Shown here piece by piece: positions 9,457 to 59,569 of a stretch of DNA of 64,000 nt. Both the position numbers and the translations under genes were made by a program. This DNA is from Eubacteriales bacterium (lineage in GTDB: Bacteria; Bacillota; Clostridia; Oscillospirales; CAG-272), in contig JAZQDD010000020.1 of NCBI GenBank assembly GCA_045546615.1, forward strand, positions 972 to 64,971, written 5' to 3'. How positions within the stretch are numbered: position 1 is the first letter of the stretch; each line of letters begins with the position of its first letter. The notes under the pieces are model-generated. The model did no database searches. It was not told where the DNA came from and was given only the letters and a program-made list of their open reading frames with translations.

Positions 9457-9478
9457 GATGTTTTTTTCGAAATTGTAG

Positions 9479-9507
9479 TTGACATCGTTTGAAAAACGTG
9501 ATATAAT
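9479..9507 (+). promoter_or_regulatory. promoter of the Asn T-box leader
   Basis: TTGACA-N17-TATAAT. Confidence 0.75.
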
Positions 9508-9513
9508 AAAGCA

Positions 9514-9760
9514 AAATAAAGACAGTGATGAAGCGAGTACTGTGAGTATCTTGTGTACAGAGAGCCGTGGGTGCTGAGACACGGCACAAGACTTATGGGA
9601 AAAACACTTCGGAGTCGGCGGAAGAAAGCTACGGCGAGTAGAACCGCACGTTCGTCGCGTAAAGACGCAGTTGAGTGGATCGCCCTTGGCGGTCAATTTG
9701 GGTGGTATCGCGGAAGCTTGCCTTTCGTCCCATGCGGGGCGGAAGGCTTTTTGTTTTTAA
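9514..9760 (+). promoter_or_regulatory. T-box riboswitch leader, specifier AAC (Asn)
   Basis: AGAGAG bulge and GGTGCTGAGA distal loop. T-box sequence AATTTGGGTGGTATCGCGG (9695-9713). Terminator GCCTTTCGTCCC-ATGC-GGGGCGGAAGGC plus TTTTT. AAC-A (9603-9606) sits directly before helix CTTC, which pairs with GAAG. Confidence 0.9.
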
Positions 9761-9804
9761 TTTATAAAAAATATGCTTAAATATTTTCTTGGGAGGAAGA
9801 AAAA

Positions 9805-11580
9805 ATGTTGAGAACACATAATTGTAATGAAATAAGGCCCGAGCATATCGGTCAGAAGGTCGTTTTGACGGGATGGATGGATACGGTCCGCGATCACGGC
9901 GGTATTCTTTTCGTTGACCTTCGCGACCATTTCGGAACTACGCAGGTCGTTTTTTCCGATGATAAGATGCTTAACGGTATCCTCAAGGAGACCGTTGTGC
10001 TTATCGAGGGTGTTGTAACCGAGAGAAGCGAGGACACCGTAAACCCCAAGATCGAAACGGGAATGGTAGAGGTAAAGGCTGACCGCATTGAGGTTCTCGG
10101 CCCTTGCCTTTTCGGACTTCCTTTTGATATCGACGCGTCTACCGCCACCCGCGAGGACGTAAGACTTAAATATCGCTATCTTGACTTGAGAAACAGAAAG
10201 ATACACGATAATATCGTGCTTCGTTCAAAGATACTCAGCTATCTGCGTTCGCAGATGGAGGAGCTGGGCTTTGTTGAGATACAAACTCCCATTCTTACCG
10301 CATCGTCTCCTGAGGGCGCGCGCGACTATCTTGTACCCAGCCGTAAGCACAAGGGCAAGTTCTATGCGCTTCCGCAGGCTCCCCAGCAGTTCAAGCAGCT
10401 GCTTATGGTATCGGGCTTTGACCGCTATTTCCAGATAGCTCCTTGCTTCCGTGACGAGGACGCGCGTCAGGACCGTTCCCCCGGAGAATTCTATCAGCTC
10501 GACTTTGAGATGTCCTTCGCAACGCAGGAGGATGTATTCGAGGTTGCCGAGAGTGTTGTATACAATACTTTCTCCAAGTTCAGCAACAAGAAGGTCTCAA
10601 AGCCCCCCTTCAAGAGAATAACTTTTGCCGAGTCCATGCTTAAATACGGAACGGATAAGCCCGACCTCAGAAACCCGCTTGAGATCAAGGATCTTACGGA
10701 CTTCTTTGCCGCAAATGAATTTCTTACCGTAAACGGCAGAACCGTACCTTTCAAGAACAAGCTCGTTCGCGGTATCGTTGCCAATTATCTCGTTAAGAGA
10801 GACGGCGAGGGCGACGGCAAAAAGGCGTTTGAGAAAGCTATCGACACCTATTCAAGAAGCATAGGTATGAAGTTTGGTTGCGGTTATATCACGCTTGAGG
10901 ACGGCGAGTTCAAGGGCCCGATCGCAAAGTTCCTTACCGATGAGCAAAAGAAGGAGCTGTGCGAGCTTTGCGCAATCAAGGAGGGCGATTCTCTGTTCTT
11001 CATCAGCGACAACGCCTCCGTAATCAACAAGCTTGCGGGCGAAATGCGCACTTGGATAGCCAACGAGCTTGGTCTTATTAATAAGGATGCGTTTGAGTTC
11101 TGCTTTATCGTTGATTTCCCGATGTATGAGCTTAATCCCGAGACTAACAAGATCGACTTTACGCACAATCCCTTCTCCATGCCTCAGGGCGGAATGGATG
11201 CGCTTCTTAACAAAGATCCTCTTGAAATTTTTGCATACCAGTATGATATCGTCTGCAACGGAGTAGAATTATCCTCGGGAGCTGTCAGAAACCACAACCC
11301 CGAGATAATGAGAAAGGCGTTTGAGATCGCGGGCTACGGCGAGGACGACCTCAAGGCGAAATTCGGCGCACTCTACACGGCATTCTCCTACGGCGCACCG
11401 CCTCACGCGGGCATGGCTCCCGGCGTTGACAGAATGATAATGCTCATTGCCGAGGAGGAGACTATCCGCGACGTTATCGCATTCCCGCTTAACGGTAACG
11501 CGCAAGACCTCATGATGGGCGCACCCGGTGAGGTCACCGAACAACAGCTCCGCGAAGTTCATATAAAAGTAAGAGATTAA
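9805..11580 (+). CDS. aspS: aspartate--tRNA ligase (bacterial type, probably non-discriminating given the context)
   Basis: GGGAGGAAG RBS. 591 aa. Motifs FVDLRDHFG, LPQAPQQFKQLLMVSG, FRDEDARQDRSPGEFYQLD. Confidence 0.96.
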   Translation: MLRTHNCNEIRPEHIGQKVVLTGWMDTVRDHGGILFVDLRDHFGTTQVVFSDDKMLNGILKETVVLIEGVVTERSEDTVNPKIETGMVEVKADRIEVLGPCLFGLPFDIDASTATREDVRLKYRYLDLRNRKIHDNIVLRSKILSYLRSQMEELGFVEIQTPILTASSPEGARDYLVPSRKHKGKFYALPQAPQQFKQLLMVSGFDRYFQIAPCFRDEDARQDRSPGEFYQLDFEMSFATQEDVFEVAESVVYNTFSKFSNKKVSKPPFKRITFAESMLKYGTDKPDLRNPLEIKDLTDFFAANEFLTVNGRTVPFKNKLVRGIVANYLVKRDGEGDGKKAFEKAIDTYSRSIGMKFGCGYITLEDGEFKGPIAKFLTDEQKKELCELCAIKEGDSLFFISDNASVINKLAGEMRTWIANELGLINKDAFEFCFIVDFPMYELNPETNKIDFTHNPFSMPQGGMDALLNKDPLEIFAYQYDIVCNGVELSSGAVRNHNPEIMRKAFEIAGYGEDDLKAKFGALYTAFSYGAPPHAGMAPGVDRMIMLIAEEETIRDVIAFPLNGNAQDLMMGAPGEVTEQQLREVHIKVRD

Positions 11581-11601
11581 TCGCTTTAAAAGGAGTTTTT
11601 T

Positions 11602-11883
11602 ATGAATAAAGAAACACTTGGAAGACTTGAGCTTCTGAATCAGCTCAAGCTCACGGAAGAGCAAAGGAGCGACGTGCTGTCTTTCTTTGAGAGCAGGGAA
11701 AGAGACATGGAGCAGGTAAACACAATAGATACCGCCGACACGGAACGCATGGTTCACGTTATGCCGATTATGACGGTTGTCCGCGAGGACGTAGTTGTTC
11801 AGAACTTCTCGCGCGAGGCACTTCAAGAGGGCGCACCCGAAACCGACGAGGGCTATTGGTGCGTTCCCAAGGTCGTTGAATGA
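11602..11883 (+). CDS. gatC: aspartyl/glutamyl-tRNA amidotransferase subunit C
   Basis: AAGGAG RBS. 93 aa. Position between aspS and gatA/gatB, and typical GatC size. Confidence 0.8.
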   Translation: MNKETLGRLELLNQLKLTEEQRSDVLSFFESRERDMEQVNTIDTADTERMVHVMPIMTVVREDVVVQNFSREALQEGAPETDEGYWCVPKVVE

Positions 11884-11895
11884 TCGGAGGATGGG

Positions 11896-13071
11896 ATGAT
11901 GGAAGAAAAAAAGATCATTATTGCCGATGATATGATACTCACGGTGGGAAGCCCCACCACCGCAGGCTCAAAAATGCTTGACGGATATAACAGCTTGTTT
12001 GAGGCAGAGGTGCTTACTCGCCTTAATGCCGCAGGATATCAGCTCGGCGGCAAAGCCGACGTTGGCGAGTTCGCCATAGACCTTCTCGGCGAGACTTCAT
12101 ATAAGGGTGCTTTGGTTGCTGACGGCAAGATCAAAAATGCCGCGGCAGAGGCAATCAAGGCAAGCGATGCCGCAGCGGCAATTTGCCTTGACGTAAACGG
12201 CAGCGTCAGACGCGCCGCCGCCCAAAGCGGACTTGTCAGCCTCAAGGCTACCTACGGTACTGTTTCCCGCTACGGTACGGTTCCCGTTGCTTGCTCGGGT
12301 GAGACTGTAAGCATTCTTGCCGCAGATGCCGAGGTCTGCCGTGACGTTCTTGACGTTGTGGCAGGAAATGATAAAAAGGACGGAACGAGCCTTTCCGACG
12401 ATATCTGCGCCAAGGTCAAAAAGGGCGCGGAGTATGCTCCCGTCCGCAAGGTCGCGCTCATTTCTTCTATGATGAATGGCGCGGACGCTGACGTAAAGGA
12501 AAAGATCGACGCGGCAGTTGCCGCCATGGAGAGCAAGGGAGTTGAGGTAACTTCCGTAGATAACGGCGTTATCCCCATGGCAAGGGGCGCGTGGAACGTT
12601 CTTATGAGCGCGGAGCTTTGCAATAACGTTTCGCGTTACGACGGCGTGAAGTACGGATACCGTTCCAATACTTTTTCCAATATCGAGGAGCTTTACACCA
12701 ACAGCCGTACCGAGGCGTTCGGTGATTTGCTCAAGGCGGCAATACTCTTTGGCTCTGATACGCTCTCAAGCGAGAACTATGACGGCGTATACGATAAGTG
12801 CCTGAGAATGCGCAGAGTCATTGTTGATGAATTTTCCAAGATATTTGAAGAATTCGACGCGGTCATTATGCCGAGCTGTTCGTCCATGTCGTATGCGGCA
12901 GAGGACGTTGCGGCAAACAAATATATTTCCTTTGAGGAGAATTACTATACCGCACCTGCGTCCATTACGGGATTGCCCGCAGTAGTGGCTGGCGGCGTTC
13001 AGGTGATCGGAAGAGCTTTTTCGGAGCAGGCTTTGCTGGATTTAGCGAGAATTATTAAGGAGGGCAGATAA
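11896..13071 (+). CDS. gatA: GatA-like amidase-signature protein, short form lacking the GGSSGGS motif
   Basis: GGAGGATGGG RBS. Collinear with GatA (TTAGSKML, NGSVRRAAA, LKATYGTVSRYG, SRYDGVKYGY). Only 391 aa, and the Gly/Ser-rich loop is replaced by DGKIKNAAAEAIKAS. Confidence 0.8.
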   Translation: MMEEKKIIIADDMILTVGSPTTAGSKMLDGYNSLFEAEVLTRLNAAGYQLGGKADVGEFAIDLLGETSYKGALVADGKIKNAAAEAIKASDAAAAICLDVNGSVRRAAAQSGLVSLKATYGTVSRYGTVPVACSGETVSILAADAEVCRDVLDVVAGNDKKDGTSLSDDICAKVKKGAEYAPVRKVALISSMMNGADADVKEKIDAAVAAMESKGVEVTSVDNGVIPMARGAWNVLMSAELCNNVSRYDGVKYGYRSNTFSNIEELYTNSRTEAFGDLLKAAILFGSDTLSSENYDGVYDKCLRMRRVIVDEFSKIFEEFDAVIMPSCSSMSYAAEDVAANKYISFEENYYTAPASITGLPAVVAGGVQVIGRAFSEQALLDLARIIKEGR

Positions 13072-13072
13072 G

Positions 13073-14515
13073 ATGAGATACGAAACTGTCATAGGACTTG
13101 AGGTTCACGTTGAGCTGGCAACAAAGTCAAAGATATTTTGCTCTTGCTCCGCCCATTCTTACGGCGCTGACCCCAATACCCACGTTTGTCCCGCCTGCTG
13201 CGGAATGCCCGGAATGCTTCCCGTAGTAAACAAAAGCGTTGTTGACTACGGTATGAAGGCGGGTATGATGCTCAATTGCCATATAAACAGAGTTACAACC
13301 TTTGACAAGAAGAGCTATTATTACCCCGATCTTCCCGCCGCGTATCAAACCACGCAGTGGTTTGCTCCCGTTGCGGTAAACGGACTCGTTGAGATAAAAA
13401 CGTCAAAAGGAACAAAAAACGTCAGAATAAAGCAGATCCACATGGAAGAGGATGCAGGAAAGCTGGTTCACGACATCCGCGAGGATACGACTCACGTTGA
13501 CTTCAACCGCACGAGCGTTCCGCTTATAGAAATAGTAAGCCAGCCCGATCTGTCAAGCGCAGAGGAGGTCGAGGCTTATCTTGAAAGACTCAAGACACTG
13601 CTTCGTTATGCGAGAGTTGCGGAGTGCGAAATGGCACACGGAACTATGCGTTGCGACGTTAACCTTTCCGTACGTCCCGAGGGCAGTGACAAGCTCGGCG
13701 TTAGAACCGAGATAAAGAATATGAACTCCATAGAGGCTATAAAGCGCGCTATTGAGTATGAAACCGCAAGACATATCGACGCTATTGAGAACGGCACGGA
13801 GGTTCTCCGTCAGGAGACCAGACGCTGGGATGATATCAAGGCGAGAAGCTACGCCATGAGAACCAAGGAAACTGCGGGCGACTACCGCTATTTCCCAGAT
13901 CCCAACGTAATGCCCGTAGAGATCGACGAGGATTGGTTTGAGAATGTCAAAGCATCTCTCCCCGAATTCCCCGAGGTCAAGCTCGAGAGATATATGCGCG
14001 ATTACGGACTTAGCGAATATGACGCAACACAGCTTACCAAGAGCATTGCGCTTTGCGACTGCTTTGAGGATGCGTACCGCGTTTGCAAGTCGGCAAAGGA
14101 TGCGGCTAACTGGATGATATCCGAGGTTATGAGCATATTGAACGCCAGAAAAATGACGTATGATATGCTTGATATATGCGGAAATTCTCTCGGAAACCTG
14201 ATACTTCTCGTGTCAGAGGGTAAGGTCGGCAGAGCAAATGCCAAGAAAATACTCTTTGCCATGTTTGACGACTCATCCATCGAGCCTTACGCTTACGCCG
14301 AGGCTAACGGATATATCATTTCAAACGACGTATCCAAGATCGAGTCTGTTGTAAAAGCCGTTCTCGAGGCAGATCCCGCTTCGGTTGCTGACTATAAGGG
14401 CGGAAAAGAAAAGGCGCTTATGGCACTTTTCGGAAGATGTATGAAAGACCTCAAGGGCAACTGCGATCCGCAGACCTTGAGAGGTATTTTGATCGATCTT
14501 ATCTCCAAATCGTAA
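13073..14515 (+). CDS. gatB: aspartyl/glutamyl-tRNA amidotransferase subunit B
   Basis: 480 aa. YETVIGLEVHVELATKSKIFCSC, followed by the GatB/YqeY C-terminal region. Start is 2 nt after the gatA stop. Confidence 0.95.
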   Translation: MRYETVIGLEVHVELATKSKIFCSCSAHSYGADPNTHVCPACCGMPGMLPVVNKSVVDYGMKAGMMLNCHINRVTTFDKKSYYYPDLPAAYQTTQWFAPVAVNGLVEIKTSKGTKNVRIKQIHMEEDAGKLVHDIREDTTHVDFNRTSVPLIEIVSQPDLSSAEEVEAYLERLKTLLRYARVAECEMAHGTMRCDVNLSVRPEGSDKLGVRTEIKNMNSIEAIKRAIEYETARHIDAIENGTEVLRQETRRWDDIKARSYAMRTKETAGDYRYFPDPNVMPVEIDEDWFENVKASLPEFPEVKLERYMRDYGLSEYDATQLTKSIALCDCFEDAYRVCKSAKDAANWMISEVMSILNARKMTYDMLDICGNSLGNLILLVSEGKVGRANAKKILFAMFDDSSIEPYAYAEANGYIISNDVSKIESVVKAVLEADPASVADYKGGKEKALMALFGRCMKDLKGNCDPQTLRGILIDLISKS

Positions 14516-48400: not shown

Positions 48401-48429
48401 TTGACAAAGCAAACTCACTGTGTTAAAAT
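48401..48429 (+). promoter_or_regulatory. promoter of the Leu T-box leader
   Basis: TTGACA-N17-TAAAAT, directly after the tcdA terminator hairpin (GGGGTTTTGAAAA/TTTTCAAAACCCC). Confidence 0.7.
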
Positions 48430-48435
48430 GACTTT

Positions 48436-48700
48436 GTAAATTTCAAAAATCAAACGCAATGACGGAAAATGTGTATGTGAAAAGCGTTTCAGAGAGCCGA
48501 CGGCAGCTGTGAGTCGGTACGCGGTCACGATGCACTCTCATTCCCGAGTGGGACATTTGAAAGGGTGTCACGGATGCCACCGTTACAGGGCAGGGAGCTG
48601 TTAGGCTCTTGTAAAGGAGGTCGCGTAAGCGGCAATTTGGGTGGTACCGCGGTTTTTATCGTCCCTGAAGCAATGGCTTCGGGGGTTTTTTGTTTTTTAC
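48436..48700 (+). promoter_or_regulatory. T-box riboswitch leader, specifier CUC (Leu)
   Basis: AGAGAG bulge and GCAGCTGTGAG distal loop. T-box sequence AATTTGGGTGGTACCGCGG (48634-48652). Terminator CCCTGAAGC-AATG-GCTTCGGGG plus T-run. CTC-A (48537-48540) sits directly before helix TTCC, which pairs with GGAA. Confidence 0.9.
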
Positions 48701-48744
48701 GGCAATCCCACAAAATCAAAATTTTTTCAAGAGAGGTTCTAACT

Positions 48745-50157
48745 ATGAACGCAAACGCAAGAAGGATCAGAATATCGGACGCAACCATCCGCACGGGTGC
48801 GGGGGGCTATACCTTTAAGGAAAAGCTCGAGGTGCTTCGTATGCTTGGCAGGATAGGGGCTGACATCATCGAGCTTGGCTCTATCAGCGAGACGGAGGCA
48901 AAGAGCGATGCGCTTCTTTACCGCACCGCAAGCGCGATCCTTGACGATTGCACGCTTTCCCTCACCGTGAGTGCAGATAAGGCGGGTATAGATGCGGCTT
49001 GGGCTGCCATCGGCGGCGCAACAAGCCCGAGACTTTCCGTAGCTCTCCCCGTTTCCACCGTTCAGGCTGAATACATATATCATAAAAAGCCCGAGGCGAT
49101 GATCGCCGTCATCAGCGACACGGTATCATACGCCAAGAGTCTTGGCGCAGAGGTCGAATTCCGTGCGCTTGACTCAACAAGATGCGAGCTTGACTATCTT
49201 ATTACTGCCGCAAAGACTGCGGCGGAAGCGGGCGCGTCGGTAATTACCGTTTGCGACACATCGGGCGAGTCTCTCCCCGATGAGATAGCCGCCATCGTTT
49301 CATCTCTTCGCGCCGCGCTTGACGGTGTCAGCATCGGCGTTGAATGCTCCGATGCCATGGGACTTGCAAACGCCGCCGCCCTTGCCGCCATCGCGGCGGG
49401 AGCTGACGAGGTCAGCACCGTATTCTGCCGCGGCGGAGTATCCGTTTGCGACCTTGCCGCCGCCCTTGCGATAAAGGGTGATGCGATGGGCGTAACGCTT
49501 CGCATCGACACCACAAAGCTCTCCAGCACCGCCGACAGAGTTTCCCACCTTTCGGGCGACCGTCACGGCAAGAGCGTAAAGAGCGTAGTTTCCGCCTACG
49601 AGGATAGGGAGATCCCCACCGATGCCGATATTATAACGGTTGGTGAGGCTGCCGCCGCCATCGGATACAGCCTGACCGAGGACGACAGAGCAAAGGTATA
49701 CGAGTCTCTTCGCCGCCTCGGTGAAAAGACGGGCAGAAAGAGTATTACCGCACGTGAGCTTGACGCGATCGTTGCCGCCGATGCTTTGCAGGTGCCCCCC
49801 ACCTACCACCTTGTTTCTTACCTTATAAACAGCGGTAATACCATCAGCGCCACCGCGCAGATCACCCTTGACAAGAACGGTGAGATGATGACGGGACTTT
49901 GCGCGGGTGACGGCCCTATTGACGCCGCTTTCCGTGCTATCGAGCAGATACTCGGTTACCGCTACGAGCTTGACGATTTCCGCATCAGCTCCGTTACCGA
50001 GGGCAAGGGTGCGATGGGTGATGCGCTCGTCCGTCTGCGCTACGACGGTAAGCTCTATTCGGGAAGGGGACTTTCCACCGACATTATCGGCGCTTCCATC
50101 AGAGCCTACGTCAGCGCGCTGAACAAGATAGTATACGAACAGAACAACTCAAAATAA
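48745..50157 (+). CDS. 2-isopropylmalate/citramalate synthase-like protein with degenerate catalytic motifs (probable pseudoenzyme) and intact LeuA C-terminal regulatory domain
   Basis: GAGAGG RBS before ATG 48745 (the longer ORF from 48565 overlaps the T-box). Collinear with LeuA, but DTTLRDGEQ is DATIRTGAGG and HxH-NDLG is ECSDAMG. The C-terminus GDGPIDAAFRAIEQI...GRGLSTDIIGASIRAYVSALNK is conserved. Confidence 0.8.
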   Translation: MNANARRIRISDATIRTGAGGYTFKEKLEVLRMLGRIGADIIELGSISETEAKSDALLYRTASAILDDCTLSLTVSADKAGIDAAWAAIGGATSPRLSVALPVSTVQAEYIYHKKPEAMIAVISDTVSYAKSLGAEVEFRALDSTRCELDYLITAAKTAAEAGASVITVCDTSGESLPDEIAAIVSSLRAALDGVSIGVECSDAMGLANAAALAAIAAGADEVSTVFCRGGVSVCDLAAALAIKGDAMGVTLRIDTTKLSSTADRVSHLSGDRHGKSVKSVVSAYEDREIPTDADIITVGEAAAAIGYSLTEDDRAKVYESLRRLGEKTGRKSITARELDAIVAADALQVPPTYHLVSYLINSGNTISATAQITLDKNGEMMTGLCAGDGPIDAAFRAIEQILGYRYELDDFRISSVTEGKGAMGDALVRLRYDGKLYSGRGLSTDIIGASIRAYVSALNKIVYEQNNSK

Positions 50158-50175: not shown

Positions 50176-52707
50176 ATGAAACTTTCACTTTCCACAAACG
50201 GTTGGGAATCCTACGGCTGGGGTAAGCTCTTTGACGCGTTTCGTGATGCGGGCATCGAGGGTATCGAGCTTCACGGCATAGCTTCTCCCGAGCTTTCGGG
50301 CGCGGGCAAGCCCTTTTCCACCGAAAATATAAAGACCACCGCGCGCAGATTTTCAAACGTCGGAGTCACCGTTACCTGTGTTGATTCTCTCTCGGACATC
50401 TCTCTTACCGATCCCGACGCGATAGATGCGGCGATATATGAGATAGAGGAGTGCATTGCCGCCGCGCGTGACCTGCGTTGCAGATTTGTAAGGATCCACG
50501 CGTTTGGTGAGGATAAGGGCGAGACTACCGACGCCGCCGTGCGCCGTATGATAATGCGCCTGCTGCCCACCTCGGTAAATATGGGCGTTACGCTTCTTGT
50601 TGAGACCGCTGGCATCTACGCCGATACCGCGCGTCTTTGCGAGCTTCTCAATTCCTTTGCATCCGACAACGTTGGCGCACTTTGGGATATGCACCATCCG
50701 TACAGATATTGCGGCGAGGACCCCGAGCTTACCATACAGCGTCTCGGCGCGTACGTCAAGCACGTCCACATCCGCGATTCCGTAAAGAACGCCTCGGGCG
50801 ATGCGGACTTCTGCCTGATGGGTGACGGCGACCTTCCCGTTGCGGAAATGCTTGACGCGCTTGATTCCGTCGGCTACGGCGGATACATCAGCTACGAGTG
50901 CGCGCAGGGCGTTATCGAGGAGTTCGGTGCGGCGGAGATAGTTCTGCCTCATTTTGTAAGTTATATGCAAAAATTCGGCAAAAGCCAGCCGTCGATGTCA
51001 CGCCTGCCCGAAAACCGTTCAAGAACGGGACGTTTCGTTTGGCAGAAAAACGAGCTTATCGACCTCACCTTCCCGCAGGTGCTTGACAAAATGGTTGAGG
51101 AATTTCCCGACCAGCTCGCGTTCAAGTACACCACGCTCGATTACACCCGCACCTACTCGCAATTCCGTGACGACGTTGACAGCTTTGCACGCGCCCTCAT
51201 CGCTATGGGTGTTGGTGTTGGCGATCACGTTGCTATCTGGGCGACCAACGTCCCCGCGTGGTTTATCACCTTCTGGGCGGCTACCAAGATAGGCGCGGTG
51301 CTTGTTACCGTAAATACCGCGTACAAGATACATGAGGCGGAATATCTTTTCCGTCAGTCCGATACACACACGCTCGTTATGGTGGAGAGCTGCCGTGATT
51401 CCGATTACCGCGCCATCATCAACGAGATTTGCCCCGAGATCGCCTCGACTCCCTCGGGTCAGCCGCTTCATTGCAAACGGCTTCCGTTTTTGCGCAACGT
51501 CGTTACCGTCGGTTTTTCGATGGCGGGCGGCGTGACGCTTGAGGATGCTATACGAATGGGCGAGAGCGTTCCCGCCGAGGAAGTATCAAGGCGTGCCGCC
51601 GCAGTCCGTCCCGACGACGTGGCGAATATGCAGTACACCTCGGGAACTACGGGCTTCCCCAAGGGCGTTATGCTCACTCACCGCAATATAGTAAATAACG
51701 GCAAATGTATAGGCGACAGAATGGACCTTTCCACCGCCGACCGTATGATGATACAAGTGCCGATGTTCCATTGCTTCGGAATGGTGCTGTCAATGACGTC
51801 GTCAATGACGCACGGCGCAACGCTCCTTCCCATGCCGTATTTCAGCCCCAAATCCTCGCTTGCGTGCGTTCAGGCAGAGCGCATAACCGTATTTAACGGC
51901 GTTCCCACCATGTTTATCGCTATGCAGTCGCATCCCGACTTTGCAAAGACTGATTTTTCGTCCGTCCGTACGGGCATCATGGCAGGCTCTAACTGCCCTG
52001 CCGACCTTATGCTCAGCGCAACAAAGACGATGAATATGACCGAGATCATAAGCGTCTACGGTCAGACCGAGGCATCCCCCGGCTGTACTATGAGCTGTGT
52101 TGACGATCCGCTCGAGGCGCGTGTAGGCACTGTTGGTCACGCCTTCCCGAACGTTGAGTGCAAGATAATCGATCCCGAAACGGGACTTGATCTGCCCGAC
52201 GGCGAGAACGGTGAGTTCGTTGCGCGCGGATATAACATAATGAAGGGCTATTACAAGATGCCCCGCGCAACGCGTGAGGCAATTGATAGCGACGGCTGGC
52301 TTCATACGGGTGACATCGCCTGCCGCGATGCTGACGGAAACTATCGCATCACCGGCAGACTCAAGGATATGATAATCCGCGGCGGAGAGAATATCTACCC
52401 CCGCGAACTTGAGGAATTCCTCTTTACGCACCCCAAGGTCAGCGATGTTCAGGTCGTAGGCGTTCCCGACAAGAGATACGGCGAGGAATGTATGGCTTGG
52501 GTAATTCCGAAGGACGGCGAAACTCTCACCGCTGAGGAACTTCGCGAGTATTCGCTGGAGCGCATGGCTCGCCATAAAGTGCCGAGATACATCCATATCT
52601 GCTCGACCTTCCCGATGAACGATGCGGGCAAGATACTCAAATACAAGATGCGCGAGTGGGGTGCCGAGATGATAGCAGACCCAGAAAATCCCCTCTCCAA
52701 GCAGTAA
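50176..52707 (+). CDS. fusion protein: xylose-isomerase-like TIM barrel (N-terminal) plus AMP-dependent acyl-CoA ligase (C-terminal)
   Basis: 843 aa. The first ~280 aa look like a sugar-phosphate isomerase/epimerase fold (GIEGIELHG, LLVETAG, HVHIRD). The remainder has MQYTSGTTGFPKGVMLTH, YGQTE, LHTGD, GRLKDMIIRGGENIYP. Confidence 0.85.
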   Translation: MKLSLSTNGWESYGWGKLFDAFRDAGIEGIELHGIASPELSGAGKPFSTENIKTTARRFSNVGVTVTCVDSLSDISLTDPDAIDAAIYEIEECIAAARDLRCRFVRIHAFGEDKGETTDAAVRRMIMRLLPTSVNMGVTLLVETAGIYADTARLCELLNSFASDNVGALWDMHHPYRYCGEDPELTIQRLGAYVKHVHIRDSVKNASGDADFCLMGDGDLPVAEMLDALDSVGYGGYISYECAQGVIEEFGAAEIVLPHFVSYMQKFGKSQPSMSRLPENRSRTGRFVWQKNELIDLTFPQVLDKMVEEFPDQLAFKYTTLDYTRTYSQFRDDVDSFARALIAMGVGVGDHVAIWATNVPAWFITFWAATKIGAVLVTVNTAYKIHEAEYLFRQSDTHTLVMVESCRDSDYRAIINEICPEIASTPSGQPLHCKRLPFLRNVVTVGFSMAGGVTLEDAIRMGESVPAEEVSRRAAAVRPDDVANMQYTSGTTGFPKGVMLTHRNIVNNGKCIGDRMDLSTADRMMIQVPMFHCFGMVLSMTSSMTHGATLLPMPYFSPKSSLACVQAERITVFNGVPTMFIAMQSHPDFAKTDFSSVRTGIMAGSNCPADLMLSATKTMNMTEIISVYGQTEASPGCTMSCVDDPLEARVGTVGHAFPNVECKIIDPETGLDLPDGENGEFVARGYNIMKGYYKMPRATREAIDSDGWLHTGDIACRDADGNYRITGRLKDMIIRGGENIYPRELEEFLFTHPKVSDVQVVGVPDKRYGEECMAWVIPKDGETLTAEELREYSLERMARHKVPRYIHICSTFPMNDAGKILKYKMREWGAEMIADPENPLSKQ

Positions 52708-52790: not shown

Positions 52791-53855
52791 ATGGAAATCA
52801 AGATTACAAGAACTACAACCCCCAAGGCAAAGCCCGCAAAAGGTCAGGCTCTCGGCTTTGGCAAGATATTTACCGACCACATGTTTATGATGAATTACAC
52901 CGAGGGCAAGGGCTGGCACGATGCCAGAATCGAGCCTTTCCACAATATCGAGCTTTCCCCTGCCTGCGTGGTATTCCACTACGGTCAGGAGATGTTCGAG
53001 GGACTCAAGGCTTATCGCGGAGTTGACGGCAAGGTTCGCCTTTTCCGCCCCGAGATGAACGCCCGCCGTACCAACGCTTCGAACAAGCGTCTTTGCATCC
53101 CCGAGCTTCCCGAGGATATGTTCGTAGAGGCTGTTCGCGCAGTCGTTGACGTTGATGCGGATTGGATACCCACCGACGACGGCACTTCGCTCTACATCCG
53201 CCCCTTCATCATCGGTACTGATGAATTCCTCGGCGTTGCCCCCTCAAAGACCTACCTTTTCTGCGTAATTCTTTCTCCCTCGGGAGCATACTACGCTGAC
53301 GGACTCAAGCCCGTCGGCATTTGGATCGAGGACGATTACGTAAGAGCCGTTCGCGGCGGTATGGGCTTTGCAAAGACGGGCGGTAACTACGCTTGCTCCC
53401 TCGCGGCTCAGGTAAAGGCGCATGACGACGGATATTCTCAGGTACTTTGGCTTGACGGCGTTGAGAGAAAGTACATTGAGGAAGTTGGCGCGATGAACAT
53501 CTTCTTCAAGATCGGCGGCAAGGTAGTAACTCCCATGCTCAACGGCTCTATCCTCCCCGGTATCACCCGTGACAGCGTTCTTACGCTCTGCCGCGCGTGG
53601 GGACTTGACGTTGAGGAGCGCAAGATCTCCGTTGACGAGCTTATCGAGGCTCAAAAGAACGGTACGCTCGAGGAAGTTTTCGGAACGGGTACTGCCGCAG
53701 TTATCTCTCCCGTCGGCAAGCTCCGCTACGTTGACGAGGTAATGACCATCGGTGACGGCTCTATCGGCCCGCTCAGCCAGAAGCTCTATGATACCGTAAC
53801 GGGTATCCAGTGGGGCAAGGTAGAGGACACCATGGGCTGGACACAGACCGTCTGA
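52791..53855 (+). CDS. ilvE: branched-chain amino acid aminotransferase
   Basis: AAGGAG RBS. 354 aa. Contains FEGLKAYR, a class IV aminotransferase pattern, GGNYA, EVGAMNIFF, PGITR. Confidence 0.93.
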   Translation: MEIKITRTTTPKAKPAKGQALGFGKIFTDHMFMMNYTEGKGWHDARIEPFHNIELSPACVVFHYGQEMFEGLKAYRGVDGKVRLFRPEMNARRTNASNKRLCIPELPEDMFVEAVRAVVDVDADWIPTDDGTSLYIRPFIIGTDEFLGVAPSKTYLFCVILSPSGAYYADGLKPVGIWIEDDYVRAVRGGMGFAKTGGNYACSLAAQVKAHDDGYSQVLWLDGVERKYIEEVGAMNIFFKIGGKVVTPMLNGSILPGITRDSVLTLCRAWGLDVEERKISVDELIEAQKNGTLEEVFGTGTAAVISPVGKLRYVDEVMTIGDGSIGPLSQKLYDTVTGIQWGKVEDTMGWTQTV

Positions 53856-53856
53856 T

Positions 53857-54573
53857 ATGGAGTCGATCCTTAACAGAAACGCCAGAGTCACGCTTTTTGC
53901 GGGACACTACGGAAGCGGAAAAAGCACGGCGGCAATAGCGTTTGCCGCCGCGCTCCGCGCCAAATTTCCGCACGAAAGGCTGACTCTTGCAGACCTTGAT
54001 ATAGTAAATCCGTATTTCCGTACGACCGACTGTGCCGAGCTGCTTCGCTCGCTTGGTGTGGAGGTGGTCGCATCGGATTTTGCAGGTACTAACGTCGACG
54101 TTCCCGCCCTGCCGGGCGCGGCGTACTCGCTTATTGAAAGGCGAGACGTACGCTCAATTATCGACGTCGGCGGTGATGACCGCGGCGCACTTGCGCTCGG
54201 ACGTTACGTTCCCGCCCTCAAGGAGGAGGGAAGCTACGATATGCTTGCCGTTATCAATCCCTACCGTCCGCTGACAAGAAATGCCGCGGACACCGCAGAG
54301 GTGCTTCGCGAGATAGAGGCGGCGTGCGGCTTGGCTTTTACGGCGATACTTAACAATCCCGCCCTCGGTGTTAACACCACCGCTGACAGCGTGGTGTCGG
54401 CAACGCCCTACGCGCTTGCCGTCAGTGAGGCTATGGGCATTCCCGTGGCGTTCACCATGGCGCGCGAGGATCTGTGCGGCGAGCTTGCGACGAGAAGCGC
54501 AGAGCTGCCCGCAGACGGGCTTTTGCTGCCGTTTGCCCATAAAATCGCCCACGGCGGCATAGTTAACGGATAA
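53857..54573 (+). CDS. P-loop NTPase of unknown function (MinD/CooC-like SIMIBI type)
   Basis: Start is 2 nt after the ilvE stop. Walker A-like FAGHYGSGKST and a Walker B-like IIDVGGDD. Confidence 0.65.
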   Translation: MESILNRNARVTLFAGHYGSGKSTAAIAFAAALRAKFPHERLTLADLDIVNPYFRTTDCAELLRSLGVEVVASDFAGTNVDVPALPGAAYSLIERRDVRSIIDVGGDDRGALALGRYVPALKEEGSYDMLAVINPYRPLTRNAADTAEVLREIEAACGLAFTAILNNPALGVNTTADSVVSATPYALAVSEAMGIPVAFTMAREDLCGELATRSAELPADGLLLPFAHKIAHGGIVNG

Positions 54574-54580
54574 AATTGTA

Positions 54581-54609
54581 AAAAAACGGCTTTATAGAGC
54601 CGTTTTTTT
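54581..54609 (+). terminator. rho-independent terminator
   Basis: AAAAAACGGCT-TTATAG-AGCCGTTTTTTT. Confidence 0.85.
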
Positions 54610-54691: not shown

Positions 54692-54901
54692 ATGGTAAAA
54701 ATCAGCTTCAGAACCGACAGATGTAAGGGCTGCGGGCTTTGCGTTACCGCCTGCCCCAAAAAGCTGCTCGCTATGGACAGCGAGAAGATAAACGCGCAGG
54801 GCCATCACCCTGCCACCATCACCGACGCATCCGCTTGCATAGGCTGTGCTTCATGCGCACTTATCTGCCCCGATTGCGTCATTACGATCATCAAGGAATA
54901 A
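54692..54901 (+). CDS. 2-oxoacid:ferredoxin oxidoreductase delta subunit (2x[4Fe-4S] ferredoxin)
   Basis: 69 aa. CKGCGLCVTACP and CIGCASCALICP. Confidence 0.9.
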   Translation: MVKISFRTDRCKGCGLCVTACPKKLLAMDSEKINAQGHHPATITDASACIGCASCALICPDCVITIIKE

Positions 54902-54913
54902 AGGAGAGAGAAA

Positions 54914-55975
54914 ATGGCAGAAAAGGTACTTATGAAAGGTAACGAGGCTATTGCCGAGGCTGCTATCGCCGCAGGCTGCCGCCATTATTTCGGTTACCCC
55001 ATCACCCCCCAGACAGAAATTGCCGCATATATGGCAAAGCGTATGCCCAAGATAGGCGGCGTTTTCCTTCAGGCTGAAAGCGAAGTTTCCGCTGTTAATA
55101 TGGTCATCGGTGCGGCTTCCGCAGGCGTGCGCGTTATGACCTCGTCCTCCTCCCCCGGAATATCCCTTAAGAGCGAGGGACTTTCCTACATGGCAGGATG
55201 CGACCTGCCCGCACTCATCGTCAACGTTCAGCGCGGCGGCCCGGGTCTTGGCGGTATCCAGCCCTCCCAGTCCGACTATTTCCAAGCTACCCGCGGCGGC
55301 GGACACGGTGACTATCACATGCTCGTTCTCGCTCCCGACTCCGTGCAGGAAATGGCTCAAATGACCATTCAGGGCTTTGCCCTTGCTGAGAAATACCGTA
55401 TGCCCTGTATGCTTTTGGCAGACGGTACTATGGGACAGATGATGGAGCCCGTTGAGCTTCCCGACACCGCACCCGAAATGGTGGAGAAGCCTTGGGCGCT
55501 CACGGGTACGGGACTTTCTCGCAAGCACAATATCATAAACTCCCTCTCTCTTACTCCGGACGAGCTTGAGAGATGGAATATCGACAGATACGCAAGATAT
55601 GCAAAGGTCGAGGCTGACGAGGTAATGTACGAGGAGTATCTTACCGAGGATGCCGACGTTTGCGTAGTTGGCTACGGCATCGCCGCAAGAGTTGCGCGTA
55701 ACGCCGTTAACGCCGCACGCGCCAAGGGCATCAAGGCAGGAATGTTCCGCCCCATCACCCTCTGGCCCTTCCCCAAGGCAGCACTTAACAAGCTCGCAAC
55801 CACCTGCCGTGCGTTCATTTCCGTTGAGCTTTCCATGGGACAGCTTATCGAGGATGTTGAGCTTGCTATCCGTTGCAGCCGCCCCGTAACTCTTTGCAAC
55901 CGTACGGGCGGTATGATCCCCTCACCCGAGCAGGTGCTTGCCTCTATCGAGGAAGCCGCCGCAAAACTTAATTAA
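54914..55975 (+). CDS. 2-oxoacid:ferredoxin oxidoreductase alpha subunit
   Basis: GGAGAG RBS. 353 aa. MKGNEAIAEAAIAAGCRHYFGYPITPQTEI. Confidence 0.9.
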   Translation: MAEKVLMKGNEAIAEAAIAAGCRHYFGYPITPQTEIAAYMAKRMPKIGGVFLQAESEVSAVNMVIGAASAGVRVMTSSSSPGISLKSEGLSYMAGCDLPALIVNVQRGGPGLGGIQPSQSDYFQATRGGGHGDYHMLVLAPDSVQEMAQMTIQGFALAEKYRMPCMLLADGTMGQMMEPVELPDTAPEMVEKPWALTGTGLSRKHNIINSLSLTPDELERWNIDRYARYAKVEADEVMYEEYLTEDADVCVVGYGIAARVARNAVNAARAKGIKAGMFRPITLWPFPKAALNKLATTCRAFISVELSMGQLIEDVELAIRCSRPVTLCNRTGGMIPSPEQVLASIEEAAAKLN

Positions 55976-55989
55976 GGAGGATGCTGAAA

Positions 55990-56739
55990 ATGGCAGTTGT
56001 ATTTGAAAGACCTCACTCCCTTGTTGACGTGCCGATGCACTATTGCCCCGGTTGCGGTCACGGTATAATTCACCGCCTTGTTGCAGAGGCTATCGACAGC
56101 CTCGGTATCGAGGGTAAGACCATTGGCGTTGCCTCGGTTGGTTGCTCGGTATTTTCCTATAATTATTTCAACACCGACATGGTTCAGGCGGCTCACGGAC
56201 GCGCTCCCGCCGTTGCTACGGGCGTAAAGCGTGCTAACCCCGAGAACATCGTTTTCACCTATCAGGGTGACGGCGACCTTGCCGCTATCGGTACTGCGGA
56301 GACTGTTCACGCCGCCGCAAGAGGTGAGAACATCACCATTATCTTTGTAAACAACGCAATTTACGGTATGACGGGCGGTCAGATGGCTCCCACCTCTCTC
56401 CCCGGTCAGATCACGCAGACCTCGCCCTACGGACGTGACGTTAACACCGTCGGATACCCCGTAAAGGTCAGCGAGATGCTTTCCCAGCTTGACGGCGCGG
56501 CTTATATCGAGCGCGTTGCTATCAACAACACAAAGAACATTCGCGCCGCCGCAAAGGCTATCAAAAAGGCGTTTACTTATCAGACCGAGGGCAAGGGTTT
56601 TACTCTTATCGAGGTAGTTTCCACCTGCCCGACCAACTGGGGACTTACTCCCGAAAAGTCTATGGCATGGCTTGAGGAGAATATGCTTCCTTACTATCCT
56701 CTCGGCGTATACAAGGATAAGTACGCCGACAAAAACTGA
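55990..56739 (+). CDS. 2-oxoacid:ferredoxin oxidoreductase beta subunit (TPP-binding)
   Basis: AAGGAGG-N9-ATG at 55990 (the ATG at 55981 abuts the RBS). Contains CPGCGHG, GDGD, NNAIYGMTGGQ. Confidence 0.9.
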   Translation: MAVVFERPHSLVDVPMHYCPGCGHGIIHRLVAEAIDSLGIEGKTIGVASVGCSVFSYNYFNTDMVQAAHGRAPAVATGVKRANPENIVFTYQGDGDLAAIGTAETVHAAARGENITIIFVNNAIYGMTGGQMAPTSLPGQITQTSPYGRDVNTVGYPVKVSEMLSQLDGAAYIERVAINNTKNIRAAAKAIKKAFTYQTEGKGFTLIEVVSTCPTNWGLTPEKSMAWLEENMLPYYPLGVYKDKYADKN

Positions 56740-56754
56740 TAGGGGGTATTGACT

Positions 56755-57291
56755 ATGACAAAGAATATTCTTATTGCCGGCTTTGGTGGACAGGGCGTGC
56801 TTTTCACTGGTAAATTTATCGCTTACGGTGCGCTTATCGAGGGCAAGGAGCTTAGCTGGCTTCCTTCCTACGGCCCTGAAATGCGCGGCGGAACTTGCAA
56901 TTGCTCCGTTATCGTCAGCGACGAGCCCGTAGGCTCTCCCATTGTTAACGAGCCTGATGTGCTTATTGCTATGAACCGCCCCTCGCTTGATAAATTTGAG
57001 GACTCTGTTGTTCCCGGCGGTGATATTTATATCGACTCCTCCCTTGTTGACAGAGAGGTACGCCGTACCGACGTAAACGTTCATTATATTCCCGCTACCC
57101 GCCTTTCCACCGAGCGCGGCTTTGACGGTATCGCCAATATGATACTGCTTGGAAGCGTTATCAAGGGAAGCGGCGTTATCAAGGAGGAGACTATCCCCGC
57201 GGCTATGTCGAAGGTAGTTTCCGCAAAGCGTCAGAATCTTTTTGATTTCAATATCCGCGCACTGCAGCTTGGCGCGGAAGTGCTTAAATAA
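56755..57291 (+). CDS. 2-oxoacid:ferredoxin oxidoreductase gamma subunit
   Basis: [32 protein letters not shown]. Confidence 0.9.
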
Positions 57292-57301
57292 TAGGTGTAG
57301 T

Positions 57302-57865
57302 ATGGCTAAAACACATTCCGAAGAGCTTCGTGAGATAGCCGCACGCCTTCAGGATATGCGCGAGATATGCGAGATATCCGAGGAGGAAATGGCGCAAAAG
57401 CTTGGCGAAACGCTCGCAGACTATCAGTCCTACGAGCGCGGCGAAAGAGATTTTCAGATCAGCTTTCTCTGCGAGGCGGCAAACGTTCTCGGTATTGACG
57501 TGCTTGATCTTATGAGCGGTACGTCGCCAACTCTTTCAGTTTGCACCGTTGTTAAAAAAGGTCAGGGCTTTAACGTTGACCGTAACAACGCGTATAAATA
57601 TAAGCACCTTGCGTTCCCCTTCCGCAACAAAAAGGCAGAGCCCTTCCTTGTTACCGTTGAGCCTAACGATTCCATCCCCGCCCTCAACTCCCACCCCGGT
57701 CAGGAATTTGACTATATGGTGTCGGGTGCGATGAAGCTCTTTATAGGTGAGGAAGAATATCTTCTTGAGGCGGGAGACAGCGCGTATTTTGACTCTTCCA
57801 CACCCCACGCGCTCAAAGCCGTGGGCGACACTGCCGCAGAGTTTTTGGCAATAGTTATCAAGTAA
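57302..57865 (+). CDS. XRE HTH plus cupin-domain transcriptional regulator
   Basis: ATG 57302 follows the gamma-subunit stop. The HTH is in the first 70 aa. C-terminal cupin motifs HPGQEFDYMVSG...YFDSSTPHA. Confidence 0.85.
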   Translation: MAKTHSEELREIAARLQDMREICEISEEEMAQKLGETLADYQSYERGERDFQISFLCEAANVLGIDVLDLMSGTSPTLSVCTVVKKGQGFNVDRNNAYKYKHLAFPFRNKKAEPFLVTVEPNDSIPALNSHPGQEFDYMVSGAMKLFIGEEEYLLEAGDSAYFDSSTPHALKAVGDTAAEFLAIVIK

Positions 57866-57874: not shown

Positions 57875-59569
57875 ATGGCTATTTATGAAAAATATCTGGG
57901 GCGCTCAAGGGACAGCTTTTCCTCGCTGAAGGATGCGCAGGAGAACTTGAAGTTCAGTTGCCCAGATGACTTTAATTTCGCGTATGACGTTATAGACGAG
58001 CTTGGCAGAACCAAACCCGACAAAACGGCTATGGTCTGGGTATCAAAGAATTGGGAGGAGAAGATAATAAGCTTCTCCGAGCTTTCGCGTGAGTCCGACC
58101 GTGCCGCCGCGTTTCTTTACGGACTCGGCATTCGTCGCGGCGACAGAGTGCTTCTCGTTCTCAAGCGCCATTACTATTTCTGGTATCTGCTCCTCGGACT
58201 TCACAAGATAGGTGCGGTTGAGGTACACGCTACGTCCATGCTCACGGCAAAGGACTATGTTTACCGCTGTAACGCCGCAAAGGTCAAGGCGGTCATAGTC
58301 TCCTGCGACGATGGCTGTACCGAGCATTTTGACGGCGGTATGGGCAAGTATGAAACTGTCGAACACCGGTTCGTTATCGGCGGCAACGCACCCGACGGCT
58401 GGCGTGATTTCAACGCCGAGTTCGAATCAACCCCCGCCGAATGGAAAAAGCCCGACTACCTTGCGGATTTCTCTGCCGACGAGACGATGATGCTCTGCTT
58501 CTCGTCGGGAACTACGGGATATCCAAAGCTCATTTCCCACGATTACCGCTACCCCCTCGGTCATATTATGACGGGTGTTTTCTGGCATCGCTGTGTTGAC
58601 GGCGGACTCCATCTGTCCGTGTCCGACACGGGCTGGATGAAGGCTTTCTGGGGTAAGATGTACGGTCAGTGGTTTGCCGAAAGCGCGATAATGGTCTATG
58701 ATTTTGACCGCTTTAACGGAGACGATATACTTAAAATAGTGGAAAAATACAAGGTCACCACCTTCTGTGTTCCCCCCACTATGTACCGCATGATACTGCT
58801 CAAGGACGTTGAAAAGTACGACCTTTCATCCATCGTGCATTGTTGCACGGCGGGTGAGGCACTCGGCCCTGAAATTTATAACGAATGGCTCACGCGCACG
58901 GGACACAAGATATACGAGGGCTTCGGACAGAGCGAAACTCCCGTTATTATTGCCTCGCTCGCGCCGTATACCGAGCCTGTACCGGGTGCGGCGGGACTTC
59001 CCGTTCCGGGTTATGACGTTCAGATAGTGGACGAGGACTGCAATCCCTGTCCGCGCGGTGTAAACGGCGAGATATGCGTTCGTGTGGACAGCATGGCGAC
59101 TCGCCCATACGGTCTGCTTTCGAGCTATAATTTCAACGAGGAGGAGACTGCAAACGCCTACCGCGACGGCTTCTATCACACGGGAGACATTGCCTACCGC
59201 GATGAAAAGGGTATGTTCCGCTACGTTGGACGTAACGATGATATAATCAAATCATCGGGTTACCGTATAGGCCCGTTCGAGATAGAGTCGGTAATGATCG
59301 AGCACCCCGCGGTGCTGGAGGTTGCGGTTACGGGCGTTCCCGACGCTCTGCGCGGCTTCCTTGTTAAGGCAACGGTCGTTCTGCGCGAGGGATATACACC
59401 CTCTGACGAGCTTGTAAAGGAGCTTCAGAACTATGTTAAGGCCAACACAGCACCGTACAAGTACCCTCGCATTATCGAGTTTGTCGATGCGCTTCCCAAG
59501 ACCTTCAGCGGAAAGATACGCCGTACGGAGATACGTCAGCGTGATGCTGAAAAGTATGCTAATAAATAA
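57875..59569 (+). CDS. medium-chain-type AMP-forming acyl-CoA synthetase
   Basis: 564 aa. FSSGTTGYPK, GFGQSET, YHTGD, GRNDDIIKSSGYRIGPFEIES, and a C-terminal SGKIRR. Confidence 0.9.
   Translation: MAIYEKYLGRSRDSFSSLKDAQENLKFSCPDDFNFAYDVIDELGRTKPDKTAMVWVSKNWEEKIISFSELSRESDRAAAFLYGLGIRRGDRVLLVLKRHYYFWYLLLGLHKIGAVEVHATSMLTAKDYVYRCNAAKVKAVIVSCDDGCTEHFDGGMGKYETVEHRFVIGGNAPDGWRDFNAEFESTPAEWKKPDYLADFSADETMMLCFSSGTTGYPKLISHDYRYPLGHIMTGVFWHRCVDGGLHLSVSDTGWMKAFWGKMYGQWFAESAIMVYDFDRFNGDDILKIVEKYKVTTFCVPPTMYRMILLKDVEKYDLSSIVHCCTAGEALGPEIYNEWLTRTGHKIYEGFGQSETPVIIASLAPYTEPVPGAAGLPVPGYDVQIVDEDCNPCPRGVNGEICVRVDSMATRPYGLLSSYNFNEEETANAYRDGFYHTGDIAYRDEKGMFRYVGRNDDIIKSSGYRIGPFEIESVMIEHPAVLEVAVTGVPDALRGFLVKATVVLREGYTPSDELVKELQNYVKANTAPYKYPRIIEFVDALPKTFSGKIRRTEIRQRDAEKYANK

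Follow-up and report, generated by a model that had tools for sequence, protein, structure and literature searches.

The 2-isopropylmalate synthases (IPMS) of the short LeuA form, which are DRE-TIM metallolyases, combine an HMGL-like barrel with a LeuA_dimer domain carrying the GxGPxDA and GxGxxTDI motifs, and are tied to leucine biosynthesis and to leucine-responsive control. Here we describe a protein that shares both domains and the association with leucine, yet is predicted to be catalytically dead. It is encoded by an open reading frame (ORF) of 470 codons at 48745..50157 on the forward strand of a 64 000 nucleotide stretch of DNA (hereafter the window; positions 972 to 64,971 of contig JAZQDD010000020.1, assembly GCA_045546615.1) from a Eubacteriales bacterium of the CAG-272 lineage, and we call this LeuA paralog pLeuA. 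It differs from LeuA in being without the metal-binding Asp, His, His and Asn, the general-base Glu and subdomain I, and in having an acyl-CoA ligase fusion, not leuBCD, as its invariable gene partner.

Several described systems bear comparison. HisZ is an inactive paralog of the histidyl-tRNA synthetase HisRS that acts as the regulatory subunit of the short-form ATP phosphoribosyltransferase, providing end-product regulation at a committed step. The logic of pLeuA is alike, in that a dead paralog drawn from the same amino-acid system is held under purifying selection. The fold and the partner differ from those of HisZ and HisG, an ANL ligase taking the place of the phosphoribosyltransferase, and both the complex and the allostery of pLeuA are putative. 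The methylthioalkylmalate (MAM) synthases (for example 6e1j) and the IPMS isoenzymes of Leptospira are, like pLeuA, LeuA-derived paralogs that arose by duplication and loss of a domain; in these it is the regulatory domain that went and catalysis that stayed (PMC9860122), and pLeuA is their reverse. On the side of the partner, the YngI and liu ligases (PRK12583) are 44–49% identical to the ligase half of the fusion. They stand alone, are catabolic, and are themselves embedded in clusters for the degradation of isovalerate and leucine. In contrast, the fusion ligase bears a triosephosphate isomerase (TIM) barrel, has pLeuA upstream and a leucine T-box, and is linked to the 2-oxoisovalerate:ferredoxin oxidoreductase VorBAC and the aminotransferase IlvE, which implies the anabolic direction. 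In the literature on isovalerate carboxylation, on pseudo-IPMS and on the T-box together with Vor we found no paper on the pLeuA family, on the gene pair or on the reverse LeuA case, and the curated libraries contain no model for pLeuA.

The LeuA fold is retained without its active site

pLeuA keeps the TIM-barrel fold of 2-isopropylmalate synthase, of which it is a predicted non-catalytic paralog. The ORF begins with an ATG that is preceded by AGAGAGG at 48730-48736. Its product comprises an HMGL-like barrel (aa 8-265, nt 48766-49539; Pfam PF00682, 1e-29), a shortened linker (aa 266-333) and a LeuA_dimer regulatory domain (aa 334-462, nt 49744-50130; Pfam PF08502, 6e-32), the last match spanning 129 of the 131 profile positions. 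An earlier note on this DNA, made from the sequence alone, had proposed that the protein is collinear with synthases of the LeuA/CimA type; the two Pfam matches and the predicted structure agree with this. The LeuA equivalogs of NCBIfam, and not CimA, are the best matches, yet none exceeds 264 bits against cut-offs of 517–748. The best is NF002086 (264 bits, cut-off 532), and TIGR00973 is similarly below its threshold (240 bits, cut-off 599); thus pLeuA scores about half of the curated LeuA cut-offs.

An AlphaFold2 model made with 60 homologs has a predicted local distance difference test score (pLDDT) of 90.9, and the sole segment with pLDDT <50 is 273-282, the site of the absent subdomain I. 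In Foldseek the barrel superposes on the N-terminal domain of LeuA (3ewb) with a root-mean-square deviation of 1.7 Å over 271 columns and a TM score of 0.92, normalised to the target. The top matches of the model are MAM synthase (6e1j), which ranks first, and full-length Mycobacterium tuberculosis LeuA.

The catalytic motifs were mapped using HMMER alignments to the solved LeuAs 3ewb, 3rmj and 6e1j, together with a MAFFT alignment that included E. coli LeuA. The DTTLRDGEQ of LeuA becomes DATIRTG----AGG, where the first Asp and the Arg are retained, the EQ is deleted, and the position of the metal-binding Asp is occupied by Thr17. FSCEDAGR is replaced by FRALDSTR, with Leu142 at the position of the catalytic Glu, and HTHDD or HCHND by ECSDA, from which both His are gone, Glu200 and Ser202 being found at the ligand positions. 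GIGERAGN is eliminated by a deletion of five residues, and with it the metal-ligand Asn. A second deletion, of about 30 residues in the MAFFT alignment, removes the AHSSGIHQDG...YE of subdomain I, which in the M. tuberculosis enzyme (MtuIPMS) carries His379 and Tyr410 (PMC9860122). The alignments predict that three elements of LeuA are missing from pLeuA, namely the divalent-metal site, the Glu that serves as general base, and the accessory subdomain, which covers the active site and binds acetyl-CoA. The earlier note had stated that every hallmark it could place was substituted. This holds for the metal Asp, both His, the Glu and GERAGN, but goes too far for the first Asp and the Arg of the DRE motif, which are kept; and the AHESGIHQDG segment, which it described as not recognisable, is indeed gone, but in fact by deletion.

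The loss is a trait of the family and not private to the gene in the window, as seen when residues are counted at these positions in 120 pLeuA homologs. The earlier note had put forward a search for orthologs with the same substitutions; in the homologs it is the loss that is shared. The metal-Asp position is Asp in none of the 120 (E, Q, S, N, A and others occur), the first His position is His in none and the second in just one, and the former metal-ligand positions are highly variable. At the position of MtuIPMS Glu218 there is E in 29, L in 26, D in 17 and V in 14, with others in the remainder. Arg16 of pLeuA, at the position of MtuIPMS Arg80, is kept here, but among the homologs this residue is R in 60, K in 44 and another in 16; it thus varies more than would be expected of a catalytic Arg, R80K and R80A of MtuIPMS being reported to abolish activity (PMC10464499). 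Elsewhere in the barrel, Cys170 (window 49252-49254) replaces the Pro of the LeuA IPDTVG motif in the substrate pocket, and is Cys in 119 of 120 homologs.

A conserved family under purifying selection

At least 120 full-length homologs of pLeuA are present in the protein database, with 43–56% identity and both domains in each. Their source names are 'hypothetical protein', 'alpha-isopropylmalate synthase regulatory domain-containing protein' and, in one JGI record, '2-isopropylmalate synthase'. Scanning genomes reveals relatives in at least 592 species representatives; the best 80 of these are all metagenome-assembled genomes (MAGs), nearly all from gut or rumen Clostridia (e.g. Oscillospiraceae, Acutalibacteraceae and Faecousia). 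One cultured carrier was found, Neobittarella massiliensis. Elsewhere in the window there is a Gut-1 RNA (Rfam RF01706, 2803-2876, 64.2 bits), which fits a gut metagenome origin.

Comparison with an 88% identical ortholog (in the related locus designated L006) gives a ratio of nonsynonymous to synonymous substitution rates (dN/dS) of 0.106 overall, with 0.138 for the barrel and 0.093 for the regulatory domain. The values for two neighbouring genes, those of a P-loop protein (0.107) and VorA (0.103), are comparable, while IlvE (0.020) and VorB (0.017) are both lower. With this ratio, and with intact orthologs in at least 592 species genomes, pLeuA is by all indications of its sequence a conserved pseudoenzyme under purifying selection and not a decaying gene, as the earlier note had maintained.

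Could pLeuA nevertheless be an ordinary, active isopropylmalate or citramalate synthase in which the catalytic residues have shifted, or a decaying pseudogene? Its collinear homology to LeuA, with the HMGL-like match at 1e-29, is what might lead one to think of a working synthase. But profile, pairwise and structure-based alignments, the comparison by which the earlier note proposed to look for shifted catalytic residues, agree on the substitutions and on the two deletions, and the scores lie far under the equivalog cut-offs. Decay is contradicted by the dN/dS (0.11 when rounded) and by the breadth of intact orthologs. We find neither alternative credible.

The leucine-site motifs of the regulatory domain

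The regulatory domain is the best-conserved part of pLeuA in the family alignment, and so the conservation of the C-terminal LeuA-dimer domain remarked on in the earlier note extends to the whole family. The GDGPIDA and GRGLSTDIIGASIRAY motifs are invariant in the family, and most of the invariant columns fall in this domain, among them GDGP (388-391), A423, G425 and G440-x-G442-x-S444-T445-D446. The GDGP and GxGxSTD (440-446) loops, each invariant or nearly so, lie in the AlphaFold2 model where the predicted helices 391-403 and 447-469, respectively, begin. The conserved G425 is the equivalent of G462 of E. coli LeuA, which is changed in the feedback-resistant G462D mutant. In MtuIPMS, leucine binds at the dimer interface, with its carboxylate lying between the N-termini of two helices of this kind (PMC11057210). 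The motifs of the leucine pocket are thus retained in pLeuA, and by analogy it would be expected to bind leucine.

pLeuA and a TIM barrel–ligase fusion form an obligate gene pair

Synteny was analysed by tblastn of the window proteins against fetched related loci. In all 79 loci where the downstream sequence was long enough, the next gene after pLeuA on the same strand encodes the same fusion protein, and the two tblastn alignments are separated by a median of 9 nt. Reverse look-ups from four fusion proteins found pLeuA immediately upstream in every case. pLeuA and the fusion are therefore an obligate gene pair. In the window the fusion (50176..52707, forward strand) has 843 amino acids, and is assigned by Pfam and NCBIfam as an AP_endonuc_2 (xylose-isomerase-like) TIM barrel (aa 1 to ~270, window 50176-50985) joined to an ANL acyl-CoA ligase (aa ~290-843) of the PRK12583/YngI-like subfamily, which scores 680 bits against PRK12583, below the cut-off of 832.

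Nothing in the locus is better conserved than the ligase half, with 70–84% identity and hundreds of invariant columns. Its closest annotated relatives, found in PLSDB, have 44–49% identity over 96–98% of the length. In Paracoccus yeei such a relative, an AMP-binding protein, comes after isovaleryl-CoA dehydrogenase, the beta and alpha subunits of methylcrotonyl-CoA carboxylase, HMG-CoA lyase and a hydratase in one cluster, and in Bacillus amyloliquefaciens in a yngJ-yngE-like arrangement. Because these relatives sit in liu and yng clusters for the catabolism of leucine and isovalerate, the comparison points to the isovalerate-CoA ligase subfamily for the fusion. Two apparent leads were discarded. 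A Paracoccus 'sugar phosphate isomerase' close to the ligase is on the opposite strand and gives a BLASTP E of 5.8 with the TIM domain, and so its adjacency is one of chance; and the seemingly split TIM and ligase genes of locus L086 occur in a contig that is riddled with frameshifts, where neighbouring genes are fragmented too.

The N-terminal barrel of the fusion is harder to place. Alignment to 3wqo and 3u0h predicts an E-D-H-E metal tetrad (E143-D171-H198-E241) that is intact in the window and in about 60% of orthologs, and broken in some 26 of 69 (E143K in 15, D171N together with E241V in 5). H196, H198, D201, E31 and W170 are invariant or nearly so (68–69 of 69). No named relatives of this barrel were found, and a word-indexed search returned fusion fragments only. 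An exhaustive search yielded stand-alone relatives of ~270 aa with 27–33% identity, which themselves give weak, generic matches to sugar isomerases and epimerases in NCBIfam. The model of the full fusion has an overall pLDDT of 75.6, with the ligase half poorly modelled, and Foldseek on this full model was uninformative on the N-terminal barrel, since adenylating enzymes dominate the matches.

The predicted tetrad bears on whether pLeuA might be a neo-functionalised enzyme, catalysing a new reaction without the LeuA metal site and perhaps in conjunction with the metal-binding barrel of the fusion. The substrate would be a leucine precursor or an acyl-CoA, acted on by invariant pLeuA residues such as Cys170, Asp171, Asp143 and Arg146. 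The barrel of pLeuA is under purifying selection (omega 0.138), some residues of the old pocket are well conserved and specific to the family (C170 in 119 and Q107 in 107 of 120 homologs, with K115 invariant in the 60-sequence alignment), and the partner keeps its tetrad in most orthologs. Set against this, the positions that were once catalytic vary too widely to suggest a defined active site there, the subdomain for capping and for binding acetyl-CoA is gone, the tetrad is broken in a substantial minority of partners, and the isovalerate-to-leucine route discussed below has no missing chemical step. We consider a new enzymatic function improbable.

The two barrels vary together

In the pair, two modules that evolve slowly, with mean p-distances of 0.25 for the ligase domain and 0.32 for the regulatory domain of pLeuA, are connected by two barrels that evolve fast (0.54 for the fusion TIM barrel and 0.58 for the pLeuA barrel). 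Pairwise distances of the two barrels are the best correlated of all pairs (Pearson 0.835). Given the ligase domain, the rank partial Mantel coefficient between them is 0.46 (p = 0.001), and that between the pLeuA barrel and the ligase given the TIM barrel is only 0.09. Two fast-evolving controls, the P-loop protein and VorC, gave lower values than the barrel–barrel pair. This mirror-tree signal is suggestive only of a complex between the pLeuA barrel and the TIM barrel, but the tracking of distances leads us to favour docking of the dead LeuA barrel on the N-terminal barrel of the fusion. The link to the neighbouring ligase fusion suggested in the earlier note gains support both from the unfailing adjacency and from this co-variation.

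A complex need not be a sensor. In Pseudomonas, aspartate transcarbamoylase depends for its activity on an inactive dihydroorotase-like subunit that is not a sensor, and pLeuA might by this precedent be a purely structural or assembly subunit, required for the folding, dimerisation or stability of the fusion, with a LeuA_dimer domain that only dimerises and senses no leucine. The constant pairing of the genes and the co-evolution of the barrels are in keeping with this, and in LeuA the LeuA_dimer domain is also a dimer interface (PMC9860122). However, the strongest conservation in pLeuA is in the glycine-rich loops at the helix N-termini, which hold the leucine carboxylate in LeuA and whose invariance is not needed for dimerisation alone, and the leucine-specific T-box upstream points to a role centred on leucine. 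We therefore think a structural role unlikely, though it has more to commend it than a new catalytic one.

A leucine T-box precedes the pair

The earlier note had called pLeuA the first gene after a leucine-specific T-box, and this is confirmed by an Rfam match at 48450..48669 (RF00230, forward strand) that scores 104.9 bits against a gathering threshold of 93 and covers the full model length. The specifier is CUC (48537-48539), a leucine codon, followed by a purine (CUC-A, 48537-48540). The conserved T-box sequence GGGUGGUACCGCG lies within the leader near 48640, and is overlapped by an intrinsic terminator (48661..48696) made up of an 11-pair stem (48661-48686) and a T run. Upstream there is a sigma-70-like promoter (48401..48429; TTGACA-17-TAAAAT with a TG extension), which matches the consensus at 11 of 12 positions as a pattern match only. 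Each of these elements is on the forward strand.

How general is this arrangement? Of 84 related loci, 53 have a T-box immediately before pLeuA, and in all 53 the specifier column is CUC or CUG. In N. massiliensis (GCA_014269355.1) the pLeuA–fusion pair, at 8589-9998 and 10001-12502 of locus L087, stands alone, with a T-box whose specifier is CUG. Because the specifier is CUC or CUG in every related T-box, and the pair is by itself in N. massiliensis, the leucine-specific control, as read from these leaders, belongs to the pLeuA–fusion pair itself.

Elsewhere in the window there is a second T-box leader (9516-9735, 118 bits), which lies upstream of an aspartyl-tRNA synthetase gene (9805-11580) that is followed by GatA-like and GatB genes.

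The surrounding genes suggest a probable route from isovalerate to leucine

The genes that follow the pair are all on the forward strand. The first (52791..53855) is ilvE, for a branched-chain amino acid aminotransferase that scores 502 bits in NCBIfam (NF009897, cut-off 307). Next is that of the orphan P-loop protein (53857..54573), with the Walker A sequence GHYGSGKST, for which there was no match in Pfam, NCBIfam or the PDB. In related loci this gene is always immediately upstream of those for ferredoxin and VorBAC, and its product may have an accessory role with the oxidoreductase or one in its maturation. No other gene separates it from a 12-pair, A/T-flanked stem (54580-54609) that resembles a bidirectional terminator, after which comes a promoter-like TTGAAC-17-TATAAT (to 54649). 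With a hairpin and a promoter-like site between the P-loop and ferredoxin genes, we read the cluster as two transcription units, the T-box unit probably comprising pLeuA, the fusion, ilvE and the P-loop gene.

The second unit begins with the genes of 2-oxoisovalerate:ferredoxin oxidoreductase (54692..57291), identified with Pfam as the ferredoxin-like delta subunit (54692-54901), VorB (54914-55975; NF005507, 532.7 bits against a cut-off of 399), VorA (55981-56739) and VorC (56749-57291). Then follow a helix–turn–helix (HTH)-cupin protein (Pfam, 57242-57865) and a second short-chain acyl-CoA ligase (57875-59569), the best match of which is MbcS (NF047394, 394 bits, below the cut-off of 850). 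This second sensor-like and ligase pair of genes is conserved in related loci, and in two of them (L088 and L089, at 12535-14511) they are fused in one ORF of >756 aa. In Parabacteroides distasonis (L093) an XRE regulator is directly upstream of a PRK12583-like ligase.

Of the 40 loci with at least 8 kb on both sides, 29 have VorB in the flanking sequence and 20 have IlvE there. Taken together, the ligase, VorBAC and IlvE would reconstruct a pathway from isovalerate through isovaleryl-CoA and 2-oxoisocaproate to leucine. That isovalerate is carboxylated on the way to leucine in ruminococci and rumen contents was shown physiologically by Allison (1962, 1966), as cited in PMC7356843.

One related locus has an exceptional context. 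In an Eggerthellaceae MAG (JALCHN010000016.1, 9989-18543; L069) the pLeuA–fusion genes are directly upstream of leuC-leuD-leuA-leuB on the same strand. This leuA is genuine, having DTTLRDGEQ, HCHND, GERAGN and SGIHQDG, with 279 bits for HMGL-like and an HCS_D2 domain (PF22617) that has no match in pLeuA, and its product is 28% identical to the adjoining pLeuA. The MAG is actinobacterial and of high GC content, and has no T-box at the pair, which could have come by horizontal transfer or from a mis-binned contig. With pLeuA and a genuine leuA side by side, the two can coexist, and pLeuA is not simply a remnant of LeuA.

The same locus raises the question of whether pLeuA forms heterodimers with genuine LeuA through the shared dimerisation domain, and so modulates the de novo synthesis of leucine. 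Both proteins are encoded in one operon-like cluster there, and LeuA is an obligate domain-swapped dimer (PMC9860122). Yet leuA adjoins pLeuA in just one of 89 pLeuA-bearing places scanned in the fetched flanks, as against 79 of 79 for the ligase fusion, and pLeuA is without the accessory subdomain that caps the active site of the partner in LeuA dimers. Such heterodimers seem to us very unlikely.

Discussion

The reading that we prefer, to which we would give an even chance of being correct, is that pLeuA has no catalytic role and senses leucine as the partner of an isovalerate-CoA ligase, in a route of carboxylation from isovalerate to leucine. In this scheme pLeuA would be made together with the TIM–ligase fusion, most likely in a complex. 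The ligase would convert exogenous isovalerate into isovaleryl-CoA, VorBAC would reductively carboxylate this to 2-oxoisocaproate, and IlvE would transaminate the product to leucine. When leucine is scarce, uncharged tRNA-Leu would switch the module on through the leucine T-box. When leucine is replete it would be bound in the pocket between two helix N-termini of the pLeuA regulatory-domain dimer, and the dead barrel, docked on the N-terminal barrel of the fusion, would restrain the ligase. The result would be end-product feedback at the committed step, as the regulatory domain of LeuA gives in the de novo route, and there would be two layers of control, one transcriptional through the T-box and the other post-translational through pLeuA. 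A more specific and more tentative form of this proposal, which we regard as possible, is that pLeuA and the TIM barrel of the fusion constitute a two-barrel allosteric adaptor, through which a recycled LeuA domain imposes inhibition by leucine on an ANL ligase.

A number of points weigh against the proposal of a leucine-sensing partner. We infer the mechanism throughout from sequence and genomic context, and this applies to the binding of leucine, the formation of the complex, the specificity for isovalerate and the direction of the allosteric effect. The putative substrate of the ligase is read only from the gene neighbourhood of relatives with 44–49% identity, and the MbcS-like second ligase could be the activator of isovalerate instead. 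The TIM barrel of the fusion, where it bears the tetrad, may catalyse a step outside the model. The near-invariant C170 in the former substrate pocket fits a retained role of the pLeuA barrel in binding a ligand, or even in catalysis. The mirror-tree signal can be inflated, as both barrels evolve fast. Lastly, about one third of the related loci have no detectable T-box directly upstream of pLeuA, including L001, L010, L014, L018, L020, L022, L025 and others; in some of these pLeuA is downstream of ilvE in a longer operon. No leucine-rich leader peptide was found in the loci without a T-box, and a permissive Rfam search upstream of pLeuA in one of them, L018, gave nothing credible. Control by CodY was considered for these loci and rejected, as the matches to the CodY box are no better than in the loci that have a T-box.

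The pLeuA–fusion pair, with relatives in the genomes of at least 592 species and often under a leucine T-box, is probably the entry point of the isovalerate-to-leucine route, to which few genes have been assigned although labelling in the 1960s showed it in rumen bacteria. The annotation of pLeuA matters here, since with the label of IPMS a genome would be taken, wrongly, to have that activity when the metabolism of gut Oscillospirales is reconstructed. In evolutionary terms pLeuA would represent the passage from enzyme to sensor, where the catalytic barrel of LeuA died and its allosteric domain survived to be joined to another enzyme of a committed step. If the two-barrel adaptor is correct, the fusion would be the first known case of an ANL ligase under the control of a pseudoenzyme subunit, and the pathway of isovalerate carboxylation, now 60 years old, would have its regulated committed step identified, in Clostridia of the gut and rumen of which almost all are uncultured. 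N. massiliensis, as a cultured carrier, offers an experimental handle on the pair. More broadly, the module would link the branched-chain fatty acids that are abundant in the gut to the supply of amino acids in uncultured taxa.

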